Virus record (IMG/VR): IMGVR_UViG_2706794699_000012 | Length of the DNA: 48,572 nucleotides | Reading direction: 5' to 3' (one strand) | DNA from: a virus | Taxonomy: Duplodnaviria; Heunggongvirae; Uroviricota; Caudoviricetes | Shown: piece after piece, positions 3,858 through 36,814 of the stretch | Layout of the letters: the number at the start of each line of letters is the position of its first letter | Numbering within the stretch: position 1 is the stretch's first letter | Position numbers and translations under genes: made by a program | Notes under the pieces: generated by a model | Told to the model about the DNA's origin: nothing | Databases searched by the model: none | Seen by the model: only the letters and a program-made list of their open reading frames with translations

Positions 3858-4457
3858 TCAGAACTTATAACCGACACCCACGATGAAACCGTCAGTGCGC
3901 CAGTCGCCACTGCCGGAGCCTTCATAAGCAATATCAATGGCCACGGATTCGGTCGGGTTAAACTGCACGCCAGCTCCCCACGCCAGAGACGTGTTGCTGT
4001 GGCGACCGTCATCACTTCCGGTCAGCACGTCGTGCGTTTTCCCCTTGTTGTCAGTTACGCGGAGATAATCCCCGGAGAAAGTCGACACACGGCTGTAAGC
4101 CACACCCGCCATCGCATACGCGCTGAACCATTCATTCACGCGCACAGACGGCCCCGCCATTACGCTGAACCAGCGGTTACGAACGGAATCTTCATGCCAG
4201 CGGGTATCGCTGTAACGGGTCAGCTGGCGATTCTTGTCTCCTGCATAGCTGAATGACGTCACCAGCCCCAGCGTATCCGTAAACTCATAACGGTATTTCA
4301 CGTTAATCCCGTTCAGATCATCACTGCCGGGAACGTTGGTCCGGGCATGAAGATACCCCGCGCTCAGCGTGGACTGATGTTCAGACGCCCATGCAGGCGC
4401 ACCGGATACGGCCAGACAAATGGCTGCGGACAAAATGGCGGCACAAACTTTACGCAT
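3858..4457 (-). CDS. lom: Lom outer-membrane protein (Ail/Lom/PagC family)
   Basis: Signal peptide MRKVCAAILSAAICLAVSGAPAWA, beta-barrel-like alternating pattern, C-terminal ...GVGYKF; sits between J and stf as in lambda. Confidence 0.9.
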   Translation of the reverse strand: MRKVCAAILSAAICLAVSGAPAWASEHQSTLSAGYLHARTNVPGSDDLNGINVKYRYEFTDTLGLVTSFSYAGDKNRQLTRYSDTRWHEDSVRNRWFSVMAGPSVRVNEWFSAYAMAGVAYSRVSTFSGDYLRVTDNKGKTHDVLTGSDDGRHSNTSLAWGAGVQFNPTESVAIDIAYEGSGSGDWRTDGFIVGVGYKF

Positions 4458-4527: not shown

Positions 4528-7500
4528 TCAACGAATACTGATGCCGGAAGCCGCTTTTTTGGTCACAATCACCGTACAGTCGGTGATATTGCCTGCCCCC
4601 TGATTGCCTTTCTGGAAAATCTTAAACTCCAGAGTGACGCTACCACCACCACTAGGCATATCAATAACTGCACTGTAACTACCGGGAATGGCACCTTTAG
4701 TTTCTCTGGATGCGATTAATACGCCGTTTTTGCGAACTTCAAAACCATAACCCGTGTATCGCGTGCCTCCCGGGTTATTTCCGCTCCCCGGATCGTCATA
4801 CGCTATACCGTTAAAAATAATGGGCGGAATAATAATCTGGCGGTCAAAGTTATGATCATCGCTGATGGTGACTGTAACCGTACCGTCTGGTGTTTCCGTG
4901 TTACCCCACGTACCGACTTTTTTCGGGAAGGCTTTTGATACAGCTTTAACGAAATCCCCTCTGACCTGGGTCGCCTCCAGCATGCCCTTAATCGTACAGT
5001 TCTGGTTAATCGTGACATTGTTGAGCGTTCCTGAGTTCGCATTCACACTACCACTGATATCCGCATTTTTAGCGGTCAGCTTTCCGTCTGATGTCAGGGA
5101 AAATACCGGAGGACTGCCACCGCTGGTAATGGCGGGGGCTGTCAGGCGCTTCAGGAACACGTCGTTCATGAATATCTGGTTGCCCTGCGCCACAAACATC
5201 GGCGTTTCATTCCCGTTTGCCGGGTCAATAAACGCGATACGATTGGCGGCAACCAGAAACTGGCTCAGCTTGCCTTCCTCCGTGTCCTCCATGCTGAGGC
5301 CAATACCCGCGACATAATGTTTGCCGTCTTTGGTCTGCTCAATTTTGACGCCCCACATCGCATTCCATTTATCGTTAGCGTCCTTCCACTCTTTCGAAAA
5401 CTCATCCAGTCTGCTGGCGTTATCCTCCGTCAGATCAACTTTTTCCAGCAGCTCTTTACCGAGATGGGATTCGGTTATCTTGCCTTTGAAAAAATCCAGG
5501 TAACCTTCCGCATCATCGCTCGCCCGACCGACGGCCTCCACGAATGCCGATTTGCCAACGGTGTTCACACTGCGGATATAAAAGTAATAATCATGGCCCG
5601 GTTTGATATTGATACTGGCGGCTATCCAGTACAGCCCCGCGCCAAGGTAGCGGGCTGTGGTTTCAACCTGCCTGATATCGGTAATCCGCGTTTCCGAGAA
5701 CCAGAACTCAAACTGTACCGTCGGATCATAAACCGCAAGATGCGGCGTGGCAGTTATCTGAAAATAGCCCGGCGTCAGCTCAATCCGCGACGGTGCTACC
5801 GGTGCGGCAATCCTGAACGATACCGACGCCGGATCGCCCTGCTGTCCCCAGGCATTTACCGCCCGGACTGTCAGCGTGTACCGTCCCAGCGCCAGTTGCG
5901 TGAAGCGGTATGTGGTTTCCGTCGTCCGGGCCGTGCTGACCAGCCGCTCACTGNNNNNNNNNNNNNNNNNNNNNNNNNNNNNNNNNNNNNNNNNNNNNNN
6001 NNNNNNNNNNNNNNNNNNNNNNNNNNNNNNNNNNNNNNNNNNNNNNNNNNNNNNNNNNNNNNNNNNNNNNNNNNNNNNNNNNNNNNNNNNNNNNNNNNNN
6101 NNNNNNNNNNNNNNNNNNNNNNNNNNNNNNNNNNNNNNNNNNNNNNNNNNNNNNNNNNNNNNNNNNNNNNNNNNNNNNNNNNNNNNNNNNNNNNNNNNNN
6201 NNNNNNNNNNNNNNNNNNNNNNNNNNNNNNNNNNNNNNNNNNNNNNNNNNNNNNNNNNNNNNNNNNNNNNNNNNNNNNNNNNNNNNNNNNNNNNNNNNNN
6301 NNNNNNNNNNNNNNNNNNNNNNNNNGCCGTCAGGAACACGGCTCACTTTCACCTTCACGCCGTCGGTGACGGACTGAACCTCCACGCTGACCGGATTGCC
6401 ACTTCCGTCAACCAGGCTTATCAGCATGGTACCGGAGGATGGCAGCGTGATTTCACGGTCGAGCGTCAGCGTCCGGGTCTGGCTGTTTACCGCCAGCACG
6501 CGCCCGCCGATGCTGATACCCGCATAGTCATCATCACAGATTTCAATGACATCGCCCGGCACATGGCGAAGCCCTTCTGCGCCCACGCTGAAGTCCACGG
6601 TCTGCGTTTCCAGCAGTTCTGTTTTAATCAGCCACAGCCCGGCGCGGTGTGCCTGCCCCCGGCTGGTACAGCCAAAAGCATCCATCTTCGTGACGTTACG
6701 ACCGTAACGGGCAATGGCCTGCGTATCCTCCACAAGCTCTGTCGCCGTCTCCCAGCCGTTATCCGGGTCAATCCAGTTCACCTCAACGGCATTATGGCGG
6801 TCTTTCAGGGCGCTGAAGCTGTAGCGGAACGGCGCGCCATCATCCGGCATCACCACATTACTGCGGTTATAGGTCCACACCTTATCCGACGGTCGGTCCT
6901 GCACGAACGTCAGCGTCTGCCCGTTCCATACCGGCATACAGCGCATCGCCGAGCAGAAATCACTGAGCACATCCCACGCCTTGCGCTGTGTGGTCAGGTA
7001 CGCATTACAGGTGATGCGCGGCTCCGTGCCGCCAAAGCCGTCCGGCACTGACTGGTCGCAGTACTGGCCGATGACATACAGCGCCCATTTGTCCACATCC
7101 GCCGCACCAAGACGTTTCCCCATGCCGTAGCGCGGGTGGGTCAGCATATCCCACAGACACCAGGCCATGTTGTTGCTGTATGCTGGTTTTAACGTTCCGT
7201 CCCAGATACCGCTGTATTGTCGCGTCTGCGGGTTATAGTTCGACGGCACCTGCAGAATGCGCCCGCGAAGATGATAATTACGACTCACCTGCTGGCTGCC
7301 GAACTGCTCCGAGTCCACCTGTACGCCGACCAGTGCAGTGTTCGGGTAGCACTGTTTCACATCGATGATTTCGGTGTATGACGACCAGAGCGTTTTGTTC
7401 TGCAGCTGGTCTGTGGTGCTGTCCGGTGTCATCCTGCGCATCCGGATACTGAACGGGCGCGGAGGCAGGTTATCCACCACCACCGAGACCAGATACTGCG

Positions 7501-8041: not shown

Positions 8042-8713
8042 TCAGCGACCAATCACCACAACCTGACCACCATCCCCTTCGTCTGCCGTGCTGATCTCCT
8101 GAGAAACCACACGTGACCCCACGCGCATTTCCCCGTACAGAACAGGCAGAACATTACCCTGGGCAACCATGTTATCCAGTGACGAGAAATACGTGTTCTG
8201 TTTGCCGTTATCTGTACTGGCTGCCGTGGGCGTCCTGGCTTTCGGTGCCAGCATCTGCGCCACACCACCCAGGATCATACTGGCCCCTGCTGCATACATA
8301 CCCGATACAGCCGCGGCCCCCAGCCAGCCCACAGGGTTCCACCATGCCACCGCAATCAGCGCCGCACCCAGCACCGCCTGAAACACACCGCCACTTTTGG
8401 CACCCGCCAGACGCGGAACGATGTGGATCACGGCACCATTTGCCAGCGGTTCATTAAGACGGGCAGATAATTCATTTTCGCCTGCATCACGCCCGGCAAT
8501 GCGCACCTGATACCAGCCGTCGCTCAGTTTCTGACGAAATGCCGGGAGCTGTGTGGCCAGTGCCCGGATGGCTTCGNNNNNNNNNNNNNNNNNNNNNNNN
8601 NNNNNNNNNNNNNNNNNNNNNNNNNNNNNNNNNNNNNNNNNNNNNNNNNNNNNNNNNNNNNNNNNNNNNNNNNNNNNNNNNNNNNNNNNNNNNNNNNNNN
8701 NNNNNNNNNNNNN
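8042..8713 (-). CDS. I: tail assembly protein I; 5' part lies in N block, start coordinate estimated
   Basis: Visible C-terminal part ...GVFQAVLGAALIAVAWWNPVGW...VLPVLYGEMRVGSRVV is lambda-I-like; upstream boundary inside 8577-8970 N run, estimated from lambda I length. Confidence 0.65.
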   Translation of the reverse strand, partial: XXXXXXXXXXXXXXXXXXXXXXXXXXXXXXXXXXXXXXXXXXXXXXEAIRALATQLPAFRQKLSDGWYQVRIAGRDAGENELSARLNEPLANGAVIHIVPRLAGAKSGGVFQAVLGAALIAVAWWNPVGWLGAAAVSGMYAAGASMILGGVAQMLAPKARTPTAASTDNGKQNTYFSSLDNMVAQGNVLPVLYGEMRVGSRVVSQEISTADEGDGGQVVVIGR

Positions 8714-8970
8714 NNNNNNNNNNNNNNNNNNNNNNNNNNNNNNNNNNNNNNNNNNNNNNNNNNNNNNNNNNNNNNNNNNNNNNNNNNNNNNNNNNNNNNN
8801 NNNNNNNNNNNNNNNNNNNNNNNNNNNNNNNNNNNNNNNNNNNNNNNNNNNNNNNNNNNNNNNNNNNNNNNNNNNNNNNNNNNNNNNNNNNNNNNNNNNN
8901 NNNNNNNNNNNNNNNNNNNNNNNNNNNNNNNNNNNNNNNNNNNNNNNNNNNNNNNNNNNNNNNNNNNNNN
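8577..8970. other. N-masked block (394 nt) covering the K/I junction
   Basis: Run of n characters. Confidence 1.
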
Positions 8971-31435: not shown

Positions 31436-31978
31436 TCAAGCCATTTTCTCAGCAAATGATTCACGCATGGGAATATATAGGGCATACTCAGCAACAGCTA
31501 ACCAATTAGCAATCCGTTTTTCGCATGTGCTAAAACACCACTCTGGGTGTGCATCATTTAGCAATTCAGCCATTTTGCGCTTAGTCATCCCCCGCCCTTC
31601 ATAGCGTTGCCGGAGAATGCAAATCAATCCTGGATGCTCTGCCAGCACCTCACTTATGACTCGATCAATACATAACGCCTCTGCATCAGTACAATGCGCC
31701 AGCCAGCTCTTTTGCTTGCCGTTGATCATCTCTCGCAAAAACGCTTCCAGCTCAGCTTTCTCTATTCCCGCTTTTTTCATTCTGCGCAGGGCTTCATTAA
31801 TGGCTGTTTTCGTCAGTTTTTTGGATGCCAACAACTGATTGAACATATTCCCTGACCTGCCACCGCCAATATACGACCAGCGCCCCCACATACGTAGTTT
31901 TCCCTGAATCCAGACACTTTCCAGCGTGGTGAGGCGAAGGTGTTCTCCGCTTTTTCCTGTATTCGTTGGGTAAATCAT
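31436..31978 (-). CDS. late-gene antiterminator Q-like protein
   Basis: Assigned mainly by position: last gene after DUF1364, immediately upstream of tR-prime-like hairpin and lysis cassette; 180 aa. Confidence 0.55.
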   Translation of the reverse strand: MIYPTNTGKSGEHLRLTTLESVWIQGKLRMWGRWSYIGGGRSGNMFNQLLASKKLTKTAINEALRRMKKAGIEKAELEAFLREMINGKQKSWLAHCTDAEALCIDRVISEVLAEHPGLICILRQRYEGRGMTKRKMAELLNDAHPEWCFSTCEKRIANWLAVAEYALYIPMRESFAEKMA

Positions 31979-32265
31979 AAATGACCTTTCTTTCTCCAGA
32001 TTTCTTGTGTGCGAAAAACCCCTTCAGCATGCATCAGGCGCAATTCTTCTTTGGTGTAATCGCTGGTTTTTACCCGCCCGTCGATTAGATCGTGGCATGA
32101 GCTACAGGCTATCGCCGCCTGCATATCATGTGGTTTTGTCGCTGTTCCGCACGTCCCCGCCAGCCTGTAATGCGCCAGCACAGAGGTTTCGGGATTGTGA
32201 TTGCAGTAGCCAGGGATTCTGATCTGGCACATCTGGCCTTTAGCCGCTTTACGTAAATTCACCAT
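31975..32265 (-). CDS. nin-region protein, DUF1364-like (YbcO-like, Cys/His-rich)
   Basis: 96 aa with CxxC...CSSCHD pattern; position upstream of Q as in DLP12-type nin regions. Confidence 0.55.
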   Translation of the reverse strand: MVNLRKAAKGQMCQIRIPGYCNHNPETSVLAHYRLAGTCGTATKPHDMQAAIACSSCHDLIDGRVKTSDYTKEELRLMHAEGVFRTQEIWRKKGHL

Positions 32266-32864
32266 TACGCAAACTCCAGTAGTTGTGCGGCCACATTTTC
32301 AACTTCCTCCTGAGAGGAGAATTTACGGAACAGAATCCAGTTCCACAGCACATTCAGTACAGATTTATAAACCTGCTGAAACTCGACTTCGTCCATATTC
32401 GCAAAAGCGATGGATTTTGCCCGACGCCCACGGCTACCGTCCGGATAAATATGCTCGGTGTAAAATCCGGCCTGAATGGTTACCCACTCGCGGAAAGCCT
32501 CAAACGACTTTAGCAACGCCGTATCCCGGGTTCTACGAGTCGCAACGGTGTTAAGGTATTGCTCTGCGGCATCACTCAGGGCTGGCGTGTGTTCCCGACC
32601 AACTGATTCGCACAGGTAATCAACGAAACCAGACAGCAGTTCTCGTTCGCGAGGCGTGATCGCCCCACCGACCGGAGTCCAGTAATCGAATCCCAGTTGC
32701 AGGAGTTTGAAAAAACGCTTGTGGAATGCGTAGTTACGCACACGCTTAAAGTCTGCGTGTATCCACTCACCTATTTTGATTTGATGCAGAAAATCGCAAC
32801 TCTCCGGCGTCGCCGGGAGAAGTAAACCAGAAGAGGTTTGTTTGACCAGTTGTATATGCGCCAT
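32265..32864 (-). CDS. nin-region protein, DUF1367-like (YbcN-like)
   Basis: 199-aa ORF, start/stop overlap with next gene; position as in DLP12-type nin regions. Confidence 0.5.
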   Translation of the reverse strand: MAHIQLVKQTSSGLLLPATPESCDFLHQIKIGEWIHADFKRVRNYAFHKRFFKLLQLGFDYWTPVGGAITPRERELLSGFVDYLCESVGREHTPALSDAAEQYLNTVATRRTRDTALLKSFEAFREWVTIQAGFYTEHIYPDGSRGRRAKSIAFANMDEVEFQQVYKSVLNVLWNWILFRKFSSQEEVENVAAQLLEFA

Positions 32865-33145
32865 TTCTCAATCTCTCGATGGCGCAGCGCAGCAGATGCC
32901 AGTTGTTCAGGCTGACGAATAAAGTATAAATAAACTGGCTATGGTGTAAAGCCCCACATAGCATGAACAAACACTACATATCAAATAGCTGGTACAAGGA
33001 TAGAAATACGACACTTATTATTAAAAACGATTAGATAAATTACATTTTAATGTTATGCAAAAGTTCTTTTTTATCATAACATTTCAATAAAAGCATTACA
33101 GATGCAATCATCCCGTCATCATCAATTATTTAAGGTGGTTAAACA

Positions 33146-33232
33146 TGGAAAATAACAAGTTCGCACATCTCGCTCCTTTTTTATCCGTAATCCTTTTCGC
33201 TTGTTGTTTTATATGGGCATTATTTTTATAAA
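33146..33232 (+). CDS. candidate small hydrophobic peptide (28 aa)
   Basis: ATG at 33146 preceded by AGGTGG at 6-nt spacing; MENNKFAHLAPFLSVILFACCFIWALFL; lies in a very AT-rich spacer. Confidence 0.3.
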
Positions 33233-33677
33233 GTAGCCACATGATAAGTTGCTGGAATCATATTTCCCACTCAAGTCATTAACATTTGATAAGATATATC
33301 TAAAAGGACGCCTTTACATTATTTATGCGTATATAATTTATTTATATACACAGTAAAGGTATCCTGGGAAAATATTTATCGTTAAAAAATACATCATAAA
33401 TAATTAAGCTGAAATTTCAGAACACAACTAATACACACAATAAGGTTCAGTAACAGTAATCTATGTGGACTACATCGAGATTTTTTGATTAAACTTTAAT
33501 AACTTATTCCTAACACACAGAATGCATAAACTAAAAGTAAAACAAATAGTTATACGAAAAACAACCATATTTATTCTATCTTCTCCTCTAATCAACATAT
33601 CAATTATGTGTTTCATAACAGCTTGACATAACCCTCCAAAAGATGCATTTTTAATGCATGTTTTGGAGGAGGTGGTT

Positions 33678-34016
33678 ATGACACACAAGAGAATTCCTAA
33701 AGATTGGGTAATCAAACGCTCAACTCCGTTCTTCACAAAAGAGAACGTACCTTCAGCGTTATTAACACATCATAATACAGCAGCAGGTGTTTTTGGGCAG
33801 TTGTGCGTAATGGAAGGCACTGTAACATATTATGGTTTTACTGATGAGAATGCTACTGAACCGGAGATAAAAGTAGTCATTAATGCTGGCGCTTTTGCAA
33901 CAAGCCCACCACAATACTGGCACCGTGTTGAACTAAGCGATGATGCTCAGTTTAATATTAACTTTTGGGTCGCTCCAGACTTTTCGGGCGAAAAAGTCTA
34001 TAGCACCAAAAAATAG
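33678..34016 (+). CDS. YeaR-like protein (DUF1971 family), plus-strand cargo gene
   Basis: ATG at 33678 preceded by GGAGGAGGTGG; ...KRSTPFFTKE...QLCVMEGTVTYYGFTDE...FNINFWVAPDF resembles E. coli YeaR as recalled; opposite strand to all neighbours. Confidence 0.7.
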   Translation: MTHKRIPKDWVIKRSTPFFTKENVPSALLTHHNTAAGVFGQLCVMEGTVTYYGFTDENATEPEIKVVINAGAFATSPPQYWHRVELSDDAQFNINFWVAPDFSGEKVYSTKK

Positions 34017-34045
34017 ATGATCATATTAAAAATGCTTTAACAGTC

Positions 34046-34082
34046 AGACCCGGCAGGGCTATCCCCGACGGGTCTCATTTTT
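34046..34082 (+). terminator. rho-independent terminator after the YeaR-like gene
   Basis: Stem agacccg (34046-34052) / cgggtct (34069-34075) followed by cattttt. Confidence 0.6.
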
Positions 34083-34636
34083 GTAAATATATTGGTTCTA
34101 CATTGACAGGAGACTTCAACCATAAGAAGTAATCTGAATACTTGAGCAATAAATTTACTTAAGATTAATGAGCGCACCTTGCCGGACAAAGATAAACCAA
34201 GGTAACACCTTTTTTCTAGCCAGTATGTAATCAATCAGAAAGCCGCTCCATAAGAACAACAGCAAGACAATAAATTGCCATTACAGCCGCAATAGCCAGC
34301 GCACATTTGAGAACCAGCACGACAACCCCCTGTATTAGACGCACACCAGTCCTGATAAATATGAGGCTGTCTCGTCAGTGATTCAATACAACTATTGGGT
34401 ATAGTTTCTGTGATTTTATTCTGTAGAAATGGAACACAACAACCAGTCACCACCAGCACTTCCTTAAATGCTCTAAGTCAGAAACAAGCCAACATTTTAG
34501 TCCGCTTTGAGCGATCTGCAGACATTGCTAGCAGCCTTCTGTGTGAATTCTCAGGGAGCAGGTCGGCATAGCATCACGTTGAGGCTCTTACCCTACTTGT
34601 TCACACCAACCCTAACTCCACAGACTGATTCATAAA

Positions 34637-35638
34637 TTAGTAATCTGCGTGTTTCGCACTTTTCAGAAATGCTTTCATATTTTCATTAGGTCGCTCAATT
34701 TCGAAGTTACTTCCATATAACTCTTGTAATTTTGGCCATAACTTACTTAATAACCCTCTCCTGCGATAAAATGGATGTATCCAAACGGTAGATAGGTACG
34801 GAGAATTTGCATTTGAATTGTTTATTGTGACCAGCCCAACTAAACATTGTCGATAACCACTATTATCCATTGATTGTATTTCTTCGACGAATGGATACGC
34901 GATTACATCAGTCCAACCATGATCGGTTGTATCCCATTGCATTCCGTCATGACATTCCTTCGACTGATAGCGGCGTAAAGCTACACACGCGAGCTTTTGC
35001 CAATCTGGAGAATTAATTGTGATCTCTTCATCGTATGACGCGCCTATTGGAGCGGGTATTGGTCTGATTAATCCAGCATGGCATTCATCATAGAACTTCA
35101 TGTTTCCCTCAGAAACGTTGTGTACGTTGGGTTGCTCCATGTGTGCGCCATTCAAAAATAGCTCTGATAGTAGTGTATCTACACTGTAATCTTTATTGAT
35201 TATTGTCGGCTTAGAGTTTTTCTTATTAAGGCCGCGAGTAACGATTTTTTGATCAATGTTAACAACATGGAATAATCCGTCGGGGAGGCTAGCGAACCAC
35301 GATGGGGCATCGGACCAGAATAGCATGCCTTTTGTACTTCTTAAGAGTTTAATTAAGTTAATACAAGCTTCTTCACTAGTCTTGCCGTTGATGCGAAGTA
35401 TGTTAGGACTAAAGTAATATTCATCCATATCAGGGAATGCAGCTTCGCAAAACTCCTGTACATAATTTAGCACCTGGATTCTACAGAGATCATCATAGCT
35501 GGTAATAACTAAGGGGGTATCTTCATTACTATTATGATTATCAATAATGCAATCTATAGCGAGACTTACTGCTTTGCGTATCACTTCAGTTGAATCTAAC
35601 GACTCTAAAAATTTTGTCTTTCGTGTGCGAATATCCAT
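34637..35638 (-). CDS. uncharacterised protein B of an AT-rich two-gene accessory operon (possible GNAT-like C-terminus)
   Basis: 333-aa ORF, 15-nt spacing after gene A; AT-rich; C-terminal ...CLVGLVTI...STVWIHPFYRRRGLLSKLWPKLQELYG loosely resembles an acetyltransferase pyrophosphate-binding loop. Confidence 0.7.
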   Translation of the reverse strand: MDIRTRKTKFLESLDSTEVIRKAVSLAIDCIIDNHNSNEDTPLVITSYDDLCRIQVLNYVQEFCEAAFPDMDEYYFSPNILRINGKTSEEACINLIKLLRSTKGMLFWSDAPSWFASLPDGLFHVVNIDQKIVTRGLNKKNSKPTIINKDYSVDTLLSELFLNGAHMEQPNVHNVSEGNMKFYDECHAGLIRPIPAPIGASYDEEITINSPDWQKLACVALRRYQSKECHDGMQWDTTDHGWTDVIAYPFVEEIQSMDNSGYRQCLVGLVTINNSNANSPYLSTVWIHPFYRRRGLLSKLWPKLQELYGSNFEIERPNENMKAFLKSAKHADY

Positions 35639-35653
35639 GTATGACCTGCGCTA

Positions 35654-36676
35654 TTAAAATTCATGAATGAACGGTTTGTCATCTGGTTGCAAAATGGTGG
35701 TTTTATTCGTTGCTACATTTAAACTGTTGTAGAGCATAATTGCCAGGTTCGATGCATTTTCAATCAGCGTTTCAAGATCCTGGTCTGTAATCACTACGAG
35801 GTTCCCTTCTTTATCCTTTCCACCACGATGCACTAAGTGATTTCGATTGAGGGTTGCCAATTCAATAGCTTCTATCGGACAGTCTTTTTGTACTTTTATA
35901 TCGAATGTAGCTTCATAGCGGTCGATTACCTTTTTAGTGCTATGCCAGCTTGCACTGATCAAGTGTTCCTTGATTGACCTGATTAGCTCTCCCCTAATTT
36001 TCTCGATGGGTTCACCCTTGAAAGGCAACGCAGCAATATCTTTGCTTACTTTAAATTCAGTCTTACCTTTTTCTATACAATTGGCTATGTAGACATCATC
36101 TTTCTCTATAGAATTAATGAATAGCTCAACATAAAGCGTTTCCAAAGCTGTAATAACATTCGTGTAGAGCAAACTAAGCAAGTGGTTTTTTTGCTGTTGT
36201 TCAGTTTTATCTTTTGCAAGTTTTTTTATTTTATCGATATTATCAATGAATTTTAAATACGGATTACCGGAAGACGTTACAGCGTCGTAGATATCATCAT
36301 CGTACCAATCATCTATATTATTTGAGTTTCCAGACCAGTCAAAACATTGTGTTTGTAATTCATCTACTAATTCCTCAATATACTCAGATTTAACATATTG
36401 ACCGAAGATGGATTGTAGTTCTTCGCTCGCATCATACGGCCCGCCATATATGTAAGCATAGCCACCTTCTCTACTTTCATACGGACAAGCATTTGCCGGA
36501 TCTTCAAAGTTTTCAAAGAACCAGTTTTTCATTACTTCGAGTTGATCTTTTTTGCTTATGTATTTTAAAGATTTTAGTGGAACTTTCTTTCCATTAACCT
36601 CGAAAACAATTTTCACGATGTAACGCTCCCTTGTATCAATTGCGCAACTATTATACCACAGCGAAATACAGGGCAT
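35654..36676 (-). CDS. uncharacterised protein A of the AT-rich two-gene accessory operon (R-x4-H, HEPN-like motif)
   Basis: ATG at 36676 preceded by AAGGAGG; alternative GTG at 36616 (AGGGAG upstream); track ORF extends to 36745; C-terminal LNRNHLVHRGG motif at residues 301-306 of the track ORF. Confidence 0.7.
   Translation of the reverse strand: MPCISLWYNSCAIDTRERYIVKIVFEVNGKKVPLKSLKYISKKDQLEVMKNWFFENFEDPANACPYESREGGYAYIYGGPYDASEELQSIFGQYVKSEYIEELVDELQTQCFDWSGNSNNIDDWYDDDIYDAVTSSGNPYLKFIDNIDKIKKLAKDKTEQQQKNHLLSLLYTNVITALETLYVELFINSIEKDDVYIANCIEKGKTEFKVSKDIAALPFKGEPIEKIRGELIRSIKEHLISASWHSTKKVIDRYEATFDIKVQKDCPIEAIELATLNRNHLVHRGGKDKEGNLVVITDQDLETLIENASNLAIMLYNSLNVATNKTTILQPDDKPFIHEF
36650..36658 (-). 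promoter_or_regulatory. extended -10 element TGgTATAAT upstream of the alternative GTG start of gene A
   Basis: Plus-strand attata at 36650-36655 and cca at 36656-58 give minus-strand TGgTATAAT; no good -35. Confidence 0.35.
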
Positions 36677-36814
36677 AACCTGCCTCCTTAAACTAACATA
36701 CCATGAGCCAGCAATGTCCGCTATTGGCACAAAGCGGACAACCACGCTAGCTCTCCCCTGTGCCAGAAAAATGTCAATTTACATATGAACTAATGCTCTT
36801 TGATCTAGTAACGT

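Follow-up and report, generated by a model that had tools for sequence, protein, structure and literature searches.

Two Putative Cargo Cassettes in an AT-Rich Tract of a Rac-Like Prophage: A DUF1971 Gene with a Predicted NsrR Operator and a Conserved 28-Codon Open Reading Frame

Introduction

Is the very AT-rich tract that follows the ninB-like gene of a lambdoid prophage a single spacer, or does it carry genes of its own? The question is raised by positions 32,865 to 34,082 of the IMG/VR record IMGVR_UViG_2706794699_000012 (Caudoviricetes; 48,572 nucleotides, all of which is hereafter called the window), where the tract is followed by a plus-strand gene of the DUF1971 family. The window is a Rac-like lambdoid prophage of Escherichia coli: the tract is 100% identical in strain LD39-1, where trkG, lysis genes, sieB, kilR, racC and recE form the flanks, and the phage records vB_EcoS-666R9, -673R7 and -613R10 show ~95% identity to it. 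In the culture-collection strains NCTC9066, NCTC10444 and NCTC9112, the identity of the tract is 99.9–100%. A first-pass annotation had described about 800 bp of very AT-rich DNA, a YeaR-like cargo gene and a candidate hydrophobic peptide of 28 amino acids; the first of these descriptions agrees with the length and composition that we measured (Table 1). As argued below, the tract probably holds two independent plus-strand cargo cassettes, one with a gene of the STM1808 group under the predicted control of NsrR, a sensor of nitric oxide (NO), the other with a membrane peptide of 28 residues.

Table 1. Features of the AT-rich tract and its surroundings, in window coordinates.
Feature	Position	Strand	Remarks
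Q-like DUF1133 gene	31436–31978	−	rightward operon
YbcO gene	31975–32265	−	rightward operon
DUF1367 gene	32265–32864	−	Pfam E = 6e-98; PHROG 'NinB/Orf'; left neighbour of the AT-rich tract
AT-rich intergenic tract, ninB-like (DUF1367) to DUF1971 gene	32865–33677	.	813 bp, 31.0% G+C vs. 47.1% for the window
Promoter-like site TTTACA-16-TATACT (predicted)	32923–32950	−	points at DUF1367/NinB-YbcO-Q; 10/12 consensus matches
Conserved block opening the small-ORF cassette (CACTTATTATTAAAA..ATTTTAATGTTATGCAAA)	33012–33062	+	homology with L189 starts exactly here
Ribosome-binding site AAGGTGG	33132–33138	+	six bases before ATG
28-codon ORF MENNKFAHLAPFLSVILFACCFIWALFL	33145–33231	+	unannotated
Left part of the DUF1971 cassette	33233–33622	.	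390 bp, 27.7% G+C; only in lineages with the DUF1971 gene
−35 hexamer TTGACA	33623–33628	+	11 nt upstream of the operator
NsrR operator AAGATGCATTTTTAATGCATGTT (predicted)	33640–33662	+	near-perfect 11-1-11 inverted repeat, 15 nt before ATG
Ribosome-binding site GGAGGAGGTGG	33665–33675	+	precedes ATG 33678
DUF1971 protein, 112 aa, STM1808-type ortholog	33678–34016	+	Pfam PF09313
Intrinsic terminator	34046–34084	+	interrupted G+C-rich hairpin (34046–34076), then CATTTTTG
Right flank of the DUF1971 cassette	34085–34220	.	common to L001, L008 and L011
Two-gene island	34637–36745	−	right neighbour of the tract

Results and Discussion

The Tract Combines Two Cassettes

The tract is not a single spacer: it combines two cassettes, with homology breakpoints at ~33012 and at 33232–33234. 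When it was compared by megablast with 5426 complete E. coli genomes, 450 of them covered most of its length, and a further 366 matched query positions 1–368 only, at ~77% identity, this match ending at the stop of the 28-codon open reading frame (ORF). In the most divergent copy (L189 among the loci fetched for comparison), the ORF-bearing segment adjoins a tail-fibre gene and homology starts at 33012, the upstream context being unrelated, while in L091 it adjoins YdfU and Q of a Qin-like prophage. These breakpoints and contexts indicate that 33012–33234 is a portable cassette of ~220 bp. As for the segment from ~33235 to 34220, an alignment with hok-bearing prophages revealed that it replaces a hok/sok cassette, which in L004 and L091 has the same flanks; homology to hok-type loci resumes only at ~34220. 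The left part of this DUF1971 cassette has no ORF longer than 35 codons and includes a 57-nt indel that separates lineages. Direct or inverted repeats that might have hinted at an insertion mechanism were searched for at the cassette borders, and none were found.

The terminator and right flank (34010–34235) were also considered as a possible remnant of hok, a candidate that was rejected for want of any BLAST similarity to hok loci. In the lineage of E. coli 7/2 (L007, 5180–5420) and phage vB_EcoS-666R9 (L002), the DUF1971 gene has another 3′ end, giving a protein of 113 aa, and runs directly up to a convergent Hok/Gef gene that has only 41 codons, hok apparently having lost its C-terminus at the cassette junction.

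The DUF1971 Gene Belongs to the STM1808 Group

The protein encoded after the tract matches PF09313 over the full model (positions 1–80), with E = 2.3e-26 and a score of 92 bits against a cutoff of 23.1. Its start at ATG 33678 is the one used by RefSeq and by all orthologs; a longer frame from 33654 begins within the predicted operator and lacks a ribosome-binding site. Thus far, the earlier description of a plus-strand DUF1971 gene with a strong ribosome-binding site and its own terminator, antisense to the right operon, holds. Its suggested kinship with yeaR needs correction, the protein being a member of the DUF1971 family without being a copy of YeaR: it is only 41% identical to YeaR of K-12, lacks a yoaG partner as well as NarL and FNR sites (see below), and shares 75–82% amino acid identity with single-copy chromosomal genes of Kluyvera, Leclercia, Citrobacter, Klebsiella, Raoultella, Salmonella arizonae/diarizonae and Vibrionaceae. 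Among these, the S. diarizonae gene is 79% and the S. arizonae gene 77% identical. In Salmonella (S. diarizonae; locus L041), NhaB and DsbB are encoded directly before the ortholog, which in the LT2 gene numbering is the position of STM1808. Judged from these comparisons, the gene is to be placed in the STM1808 orthologous group, which is otherwise absent from E. coli.

Against the chromosomal orthologs, the ratio of nonsynonymous to synonymous changes (pN/pS) is 0.12–0.20, which indicates purifying selection. The synonymous component (pS) is near saturation (0.8–1.0) against every chromosomal ortholog sampled, which places the donor outside these species. Two residues, His32 and His82, are invariant in the ortholog alignment. 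According to work by Karlinsey and colleagues of 2012, STM1808 is reportedly a zinc protein on which Salmonella depends to grow under nitrosative stress, and which requires both histidines for zinc binding and NO resistance. Two publications that cite this work describe STM1808 as NsrR-regulated and as promoting growth in systemic infection of mice (PMC7527575, PMC6529577).

Newer RefSeq records produced by the PGAP pipeline name the 112-aa protein 'TehB family protein', a misleading label. The candidate identity was rejected: with the NCBIfam TehB model, the score is 49 bits (cutoff 303) and the match is confined to positions 11–106 of 289; the protein is not TehB because the methyltransferase domain is absent. 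The label is explained by a 77% identity (86/111) to the PDB entry 3DL3, deposited as 'tellurite resistance protein B', and our assignment corrects it for the RefSeq records concerned.

A Predicted NsrR Operator Overlies the Putative Core Promoter

In its holo form, NsrR carries a [4Fe-4S] cluster and represses its targets, and NO nitrosylates this cluster. To score candidate operators, we used a palindromic matrix built from 26 distinct NsrR sites of strain CFT073 (Table 4 of PMC5320621), which themselves score 11–31 bits. The predicted operator of the window reaches 27.3 bits, above every training site except that of ytfE (30.8 bits), the strongest in E. coli, which reads AAGATGCATTTAAAATGCATCTT. 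Within the 48.6-kb window, the next best site scores 12.3 bits, and the best score over 1000 shuffles of the spacer is 19.5 bits. Moreover, when 80 orthologous loci were fetched and surveyed, essentially all those of Enterobacterales had a site of 20–31 bits located 15–27 nt before the ATG (operator-bearing orthologs: Kluyvera, Leclercia, Citrobacter, Klebsiella, Raoultella and S. arizonae/diarizonae), and most Vibrionaceae lacked such an operator. With a site among the best matches to the matrix and conserved in orthologs, the link to nitrosative stress proposed at first pass is supported.

The surrounding layout points in the same direction. Aligned on the operator, 52 distinct upstream sequences of enterobacterial orthologs and that of the window all present a −35-like hexamer at −17 to −12 relative to the operator start (TTTACA, TTGACG or TTGCCT in orthologs, TTGACA in the phage). 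Because the −35 lies at a fixed offset, the −10 can be placed at operator positions 7–12 with a 17-nt spacer, where orthologs read TATTTT, TATATT or CATATT and the phage reads CATTTT (33646–33651). In this predicted layout, the operator would overlie the core promoter in the window and in the 52 ortholog sequences alike, a placement of the repression type. Upstream of the −35, the DNA of the orthologs is unrelated and unalignable. Given this fixed register of −35 and operator and the unrelated DNA beyond, the phage would appear to have captured promoter, operator and gene as one unit. Among 29 phage copies, we counted seven promoter variants, and the palindrome is present in all of them, as is GGAGGTGG (7/7), one common variant having a weaker left half (20 bits). 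In the present allele, the palindrome extends to 17-nt arms over 33633–33669 (CCTCCAAAAGATGCATT / AATGCATGTTTTGGAGG), so that its right arm reaches into the ribosome-binding site; in other alleles, the palindrome is less perfect. At the other end of the gene, CATTTTT follows the hairpin, which has a folding energy of −19.4 kcal/mol (z = −1.9), and allele L008 shows a compensatory change from G-C to A-T in the stem.

Sites for NsrR, NarL or FNR upstream of 33678 had all been envisaged at first pass, and only the first of the three was recovered: no NarL heptamer (TACYYMT) occurs in 33400–33680 and no FNR site within 280 bp upstream of the gene, so nitrate would act only through NO. This bears on the hypothesis of a phage copy of yeaR, activated by nitrate via NarL with NsrR as a co-regulator. 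In E. coli, yeaR-yoaG is under NarL control, the two proteins share the DUF1971 domain at the 41% identity given above, and the K-12 yeaR promoter also has an NsrR site, with a central −10-like TAAAAT. In addition to the missing NarL and FNR sites, the far higher identity to another orthologous group and the presence downstream of a terminator instead of yoaG make such a copy very unlikely. An STM1808-group gene behind an NsrR operator accounts better for these features.

Distribution and Possible Role of the DUF1971 Gene

In a sensitive blastn search, the gene was found in 457 of the 5426 complete E. coli genomes, always with at least 90% identity to the allele of the window, and was intact in 453. 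Since all 457 copies are this similar, E. coli has the gene only as a phage-type allele; it also occurs in phage genome records (e.g., vB_EcoS-666R9). Like a phage moron, it comes with a promoter and an operator (both predicted) and a terminator, and its presence is variable, other Rac-like prophages having hok, IteAS or other cargo instead. The literature that we searched returned no report of an NsrR-controlled prophage gene.

From these features, the gene is most likely an NO-derepressed lysogenic-conversion gene, and its operation may be pictured as follows. Cassette 1 (~33235–34220) would be an enterobacterial STM1808-group gene captured along with its own promoter. In a lysogen, the [4Fe-4S] NsrR of the host would bind the operator, occlude the −10 and block RNA polymerase. 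Upon nitrosylation of its cluster by NO, NsrR would be released and the gene switched on, its transcript stopping at the hairpin 34046–34084. The prophage would thereby supply E. coli with a member of the NO-stress regulon that is missing from its chromosome.

If this is true, ~8% of sequenced E. coli strains gain from a temperate phage a nitrosative-stress gene that promotes growth under NO and systemic infection in Salmonella, in a copy already connected to the NO sensor of the host. It would be a clean and testable case of lysogenic conversion via a host stress regulon, bearing on the colonisation of the gut and the urinary tract, in which NO ranks among the chief weapons of the host. The regulatory prediction is a strong one. 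None of this implies a new principle.

A Conserved and Unannotated 28-Codon ORF

The other cassette contains the ORF that had been singled out for its well-placed AGGTGG and that proves to be conserved in related prophages; its conservation identifies it as a real, so far unannotated small gene. A pattern based on the conserved start recovered 175 copies from the fetched loci, all of them exactly 87 nt long, in 21 DNA versions and without any indel. In a second set, where regions were defined only by a conserved anchor near ninB, the ORF was intact in 116 of the 119 that were long enough, the other three being interrupted by an insertion sequence (IS). The ribosome-binding site reads AAGGTG in most of 131 pattern-matched copies, AAAGTG or AAAGCG in 39 and AAGGTA in 2. 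Against the allele of the window, pN/pS is 0.12–0.38; among four representative alleles, it is 0.10–0.28, with a synonymous excess whose Fisher p values, from non-independent comparisons, range from 6e-6 to 0.04. The replacements are conservative (A/V, I/V, L/F, C/F) and preserve the hydrophobic character. Finally, the frame is maintained in distant lineages, whether the ORF stands next to NinB, to YdfU/Q or to a tail-fibre gene, and ~15% of E. coli genomes have the cassette (~220 bp), which lies where the cargo slot meets the nin genes.

The product begins with a polar N-terminus of eight residues, MENNK(S/F)AH, followed up to the C-terminus by a hydrophobic segment of 20 residues (9–28; mean Kyte-Doolittle hydropathy +2.5). 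It is probably a small membrane protein, its translation and insertion into the membrane being what we infer from this composition. Three variants of the peptide were absent from an exact look-up in 15 billion proteins, no match was obtained in Pfam or NCBIfam (E up to 10 for both) or in PHROG (E up to 0.1), and a full-text literature search for the peptide strings returned nothing. The Qin prophage of K-12 lacks the ORF and has rem at the corresponding place; because K-12 is without it, small-protein surveys based on this strain are blind to it. With the ORF, the prophage pan-genome gains a conserved small gene that standard gene callers miss. In terms of mechanism, cassette 2 (33012–33234) would specify a single-pass membrane peptide of 28 residues, expressed from the lysogen strand and portable between prophage contexts, the leading guesses for its role being the modulation of a membrane target, exclusion, or a toxin-like activity. 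The conserved block that opens the cassette (33012–33062) is the best candidate region for a promoter or an UP element.

On the minus strand, a promoter-like site (TTTCCA-16-TATGAT or AATAAT) was observed at 4255–4282 in L003 and at 758–785 in L189, the equivalent in the window being ~33120–33152. Its −35 is complementary to the start of the ORF (ATGGAAA), and it could drive an RNA antisense to the 5′ region of the ORF, although in DNA as AT-rich as this such matches are to be expected by chance.

Toxin, RNA Signal or Leader Peptide?

According to one hypothesis, the cassette belongs to a new type I toxin–antitoxin module with the peptide as its toxin, the translation of which is restrained by an antisense RNA in the form of a dedicated small RNA or of the rightward operon transcript. 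The resemblance to type I toxins noted at first pass stands as far as size (28 residues) and hydrophobicity are concerned, and the peptide occupies a slot where sister prophages carry hok/sok cassettes. The opposite-strand site also overlaps the ORF start in L003 and L189, and a small hairpin in the conserved block differs between these two loci by one compensatory change (by eye). The resemblance does not extend to any known family, and no convincing antisense RNA was found. The peptide matches no toxin family and lacks the charged tail common in type I toxins; no antitoxin RNA family was recognised, an Rfam scan of 32500–34800 (E up to 1) yielding only a spurious miRNA match. Nor did RNAalifold, run on both strands of 61 distinct versions of the cassette, return a convincing conserved structure, let alone one sequestering the ribosome-binding site. 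As to the antisense promoter, such matches are at chance level (2–4 found vs. 2–3 expected), and the spacing in the window allele is 15 nt. We regard a type I toxin as a tentative and rather doubtful proposal.

Alternatively, the ORF might be untranslated and owe its conservation to a signal, in DNA or RNA, that serves the ninB-Q operon of the opposite strand, be it a terminator, an antitermination site or a promoter. Lying where the rightward transcript passes, ~280 bp upstream of ninB, the ORF would be well placed for such a signal, and the lack of a promoter assignable to it would fit as well; besides, 28 codons without a stop are no rarity in AT-rich DNA (~12% per start, by our own estimate). 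A signal would not require the synonymous excess, the complete lack of indels over 21 alleles or the maintenance of both ATG and ribosome-binding site, and it is at odds with the occurrence of the cassette away from ninB and with the lack of conserved structure on either strand. Hence, this explanation appears unlikely.

The peptide had also been suggested to be a leader regulating a downstream gene, which here would be the DUF1971 gene, located 446 nt further on the same strand with no terminator predicted in between in the window. In most lineages, nothing follows on the ORF strand and a possible bidirectional terminator hairpin comes directly after the stop codon, and where there are downstream neighbours, these vary (IteAS, hok, a tail-fibre gene). 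Because of this hairpin and this varying content, we abandon the leader peptide, which is the least credible option, and retain a probable small membrane protein.

Weighing the Two-Cassette Reading

Several points weigh against two functional cassettes as described above. For the DUF1971 gene, 9 of the 29 phage copies have a degraded left half-site (20 bits), CATTTT makes a weak −10 in the window allele, and a consensus promoter scan called no plus-strand promoter. For the ORF, the same kind of scan left no promoter to assign, with no clear sigma-70 match in 33012–33062, and the distribution of variable sites over codon positions (7/9/17) is not significant when taken alone (chi-square p ~0.08, by our own arithmetic). 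Finally, H-NS may silence AT-rich DNA and so keep both cassettes quiet.

Pushed to its limit, this last point turns both cassettes into silent passengers, with H-NS bound to the AT-rich tract and the DUF1971 gene idle in E. coli. The contrast in composition (27.7–31% G+C vs. 47% in the window) makes silencing by H-NS plausible from the AT content alone, and the IS1 and IS3 insertions and the deletions seen in the slot would be expected of passengers, as would a G+C content of 28–31%. Idleness is harder to reconcile with a gene kept intact under purifying selection in 453 genomes and with the retention of its operator and promoter, and control by NsrR is in any case compatible with control by H-NS. 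We therefore find silent passengers improbable and keep to the reading of two independent cargo cassettes.

A bolder joint proposal goes further. In it, the peptide founds an unrecognised family of small membrane proteins of prophages, as a new type I toxin or a factor of superinfection exclusion or defence, and its neighbour makes Rac-like prophages NO-responsive fitness factors through the function of Salmonella STM1808. As an added twist, transcription of 33623–34084 induced by NO would collide head-on with the rightward operon of the phage, so that the expression of ninB and Q might become coupled to the NO signal. We put this proposal forward as speculation that is more probably wrong than right.

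Prophage Context and Cargo Slot

The rightward operon of the prophage is encoded on the minus strand of the window, and its cargo hotspot is the slot between replication genes (DUF977) and ninB. In sister prophages, this slot contains IteAS, hokD with an AAA/DUF262 pair, QueH, Hok with KilA-N, or three hypothetical genes; in the window, it contains a 333-aa GNAT-like gene and a 363-aa gene with a weak match to a HEPN/RES N-terminal domain. The GNAT match of this two-gene island is itself weak and lies at the C-terminus of the 333-aa protein. Both proteins are full-length members of PHROGs of unknown function, neither gene matches PADLOC, and the same pair also occurs in a Qin-like prophage (L091). 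Since sister prophages have known defence systems (IteAS) at this place, the pair is a candidate for an uncharacterised defence system.

Nearer to ninB, the first 100 bp of the spacer are nearly invariant and include the minus-strand promoter-like site of Table 1, which is also present in L003 and lies ~60 nt upstream of the ninB-like gene. This predicted site suggests that ninB-YbcO-Q may have a promoter of its own besides read-through from the early right promoter.

Beyond the DUF1971 cassette, ~315 nt of the minus strand (34216–34530) are 83–100% conserved across many prophages and, in L004 and L091, lie directly upstream of hok on the same strand. They contain a candidate hydrophobic ORF of 29 codons (MLVLKCALAIAAVMAIYCLAVVLMERLSD, 34231–34320, minus strand) that is initiated by GTG, with GGGGG or AGGAG before it; as for the 28-codon ORF, Pfam, NCBIfam and PHROG yielded no usable match. 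A Cys-rich frame of 74–96 codons that overlaps it is open as well; either frame, or neither, may be coding, and the stretch may instead be an RNA element. Insertions of IS1, IS3 and ISSen4 and IS-mediated deletions are recurrent in the slot (L006, L009, L003, L211/L221); in E. coli B-JRPT-4119 (L006), an IS1 lies directly after the NsrR operator, and everything from the DUF1971 gene up to intR has been removed. Runs of N (masked sequence) occur in the structural-gene part of the prophage, at 484–794, 5954–6325 and 8577–8970 of the window.

Comparison with Known Systems

The closest counterpart of the DUF1971 gene is STM1808 of Salmonella enterica, with which it shares a DUF1971 protein of 112–113 aa, the two histidines, an NsrR palindrome near the start and a monocistronic organisation. 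The copy of the window differs in being phage-borne, within an AT-rich cassette and in a species whose chromosome is without the gene, and in having a perfect −35 and a weaker −10. YeaR of E. coli belongs to the same fold family (PDB 3BB6, E = 2e-24) and also has an NsrR site over the −10, but is set apart by the low identity, the yoaG partner and the NarL sites discussed above. The stand-alone DUF1971 protein 3DL3 (119 aa) and the N-terminal domain of TehB (3M70) are of the same family too, the protein of the window being devoid of the methyltransferase domain.

Regarding the 28-residue peptide, Hok, Ibs, ShoB and the small inner-membrane proteins of E. coli resemble it by their small size, their single hydrophobic segment and, in related prophages, the neighbourhood of hok cassettes. 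It differs from Hok, Ibs and ShoB in that it matches no sequence family, has no identified antitoxin RNA and is absent from K-12.

At the level of the whole DUF1971 cassette, the comparison is with phage morons such as bor and lom of lambda or sodC of Gifsy-2, likewise self-contained units that bring along a promoter and a terminator, run counter to the phage operon, are atypical in composition, occupy a variable slot and answer to a host regulator. What distinguishes the cassette of the window from these morons is its predicted regulator, the NO sensor NsrR.

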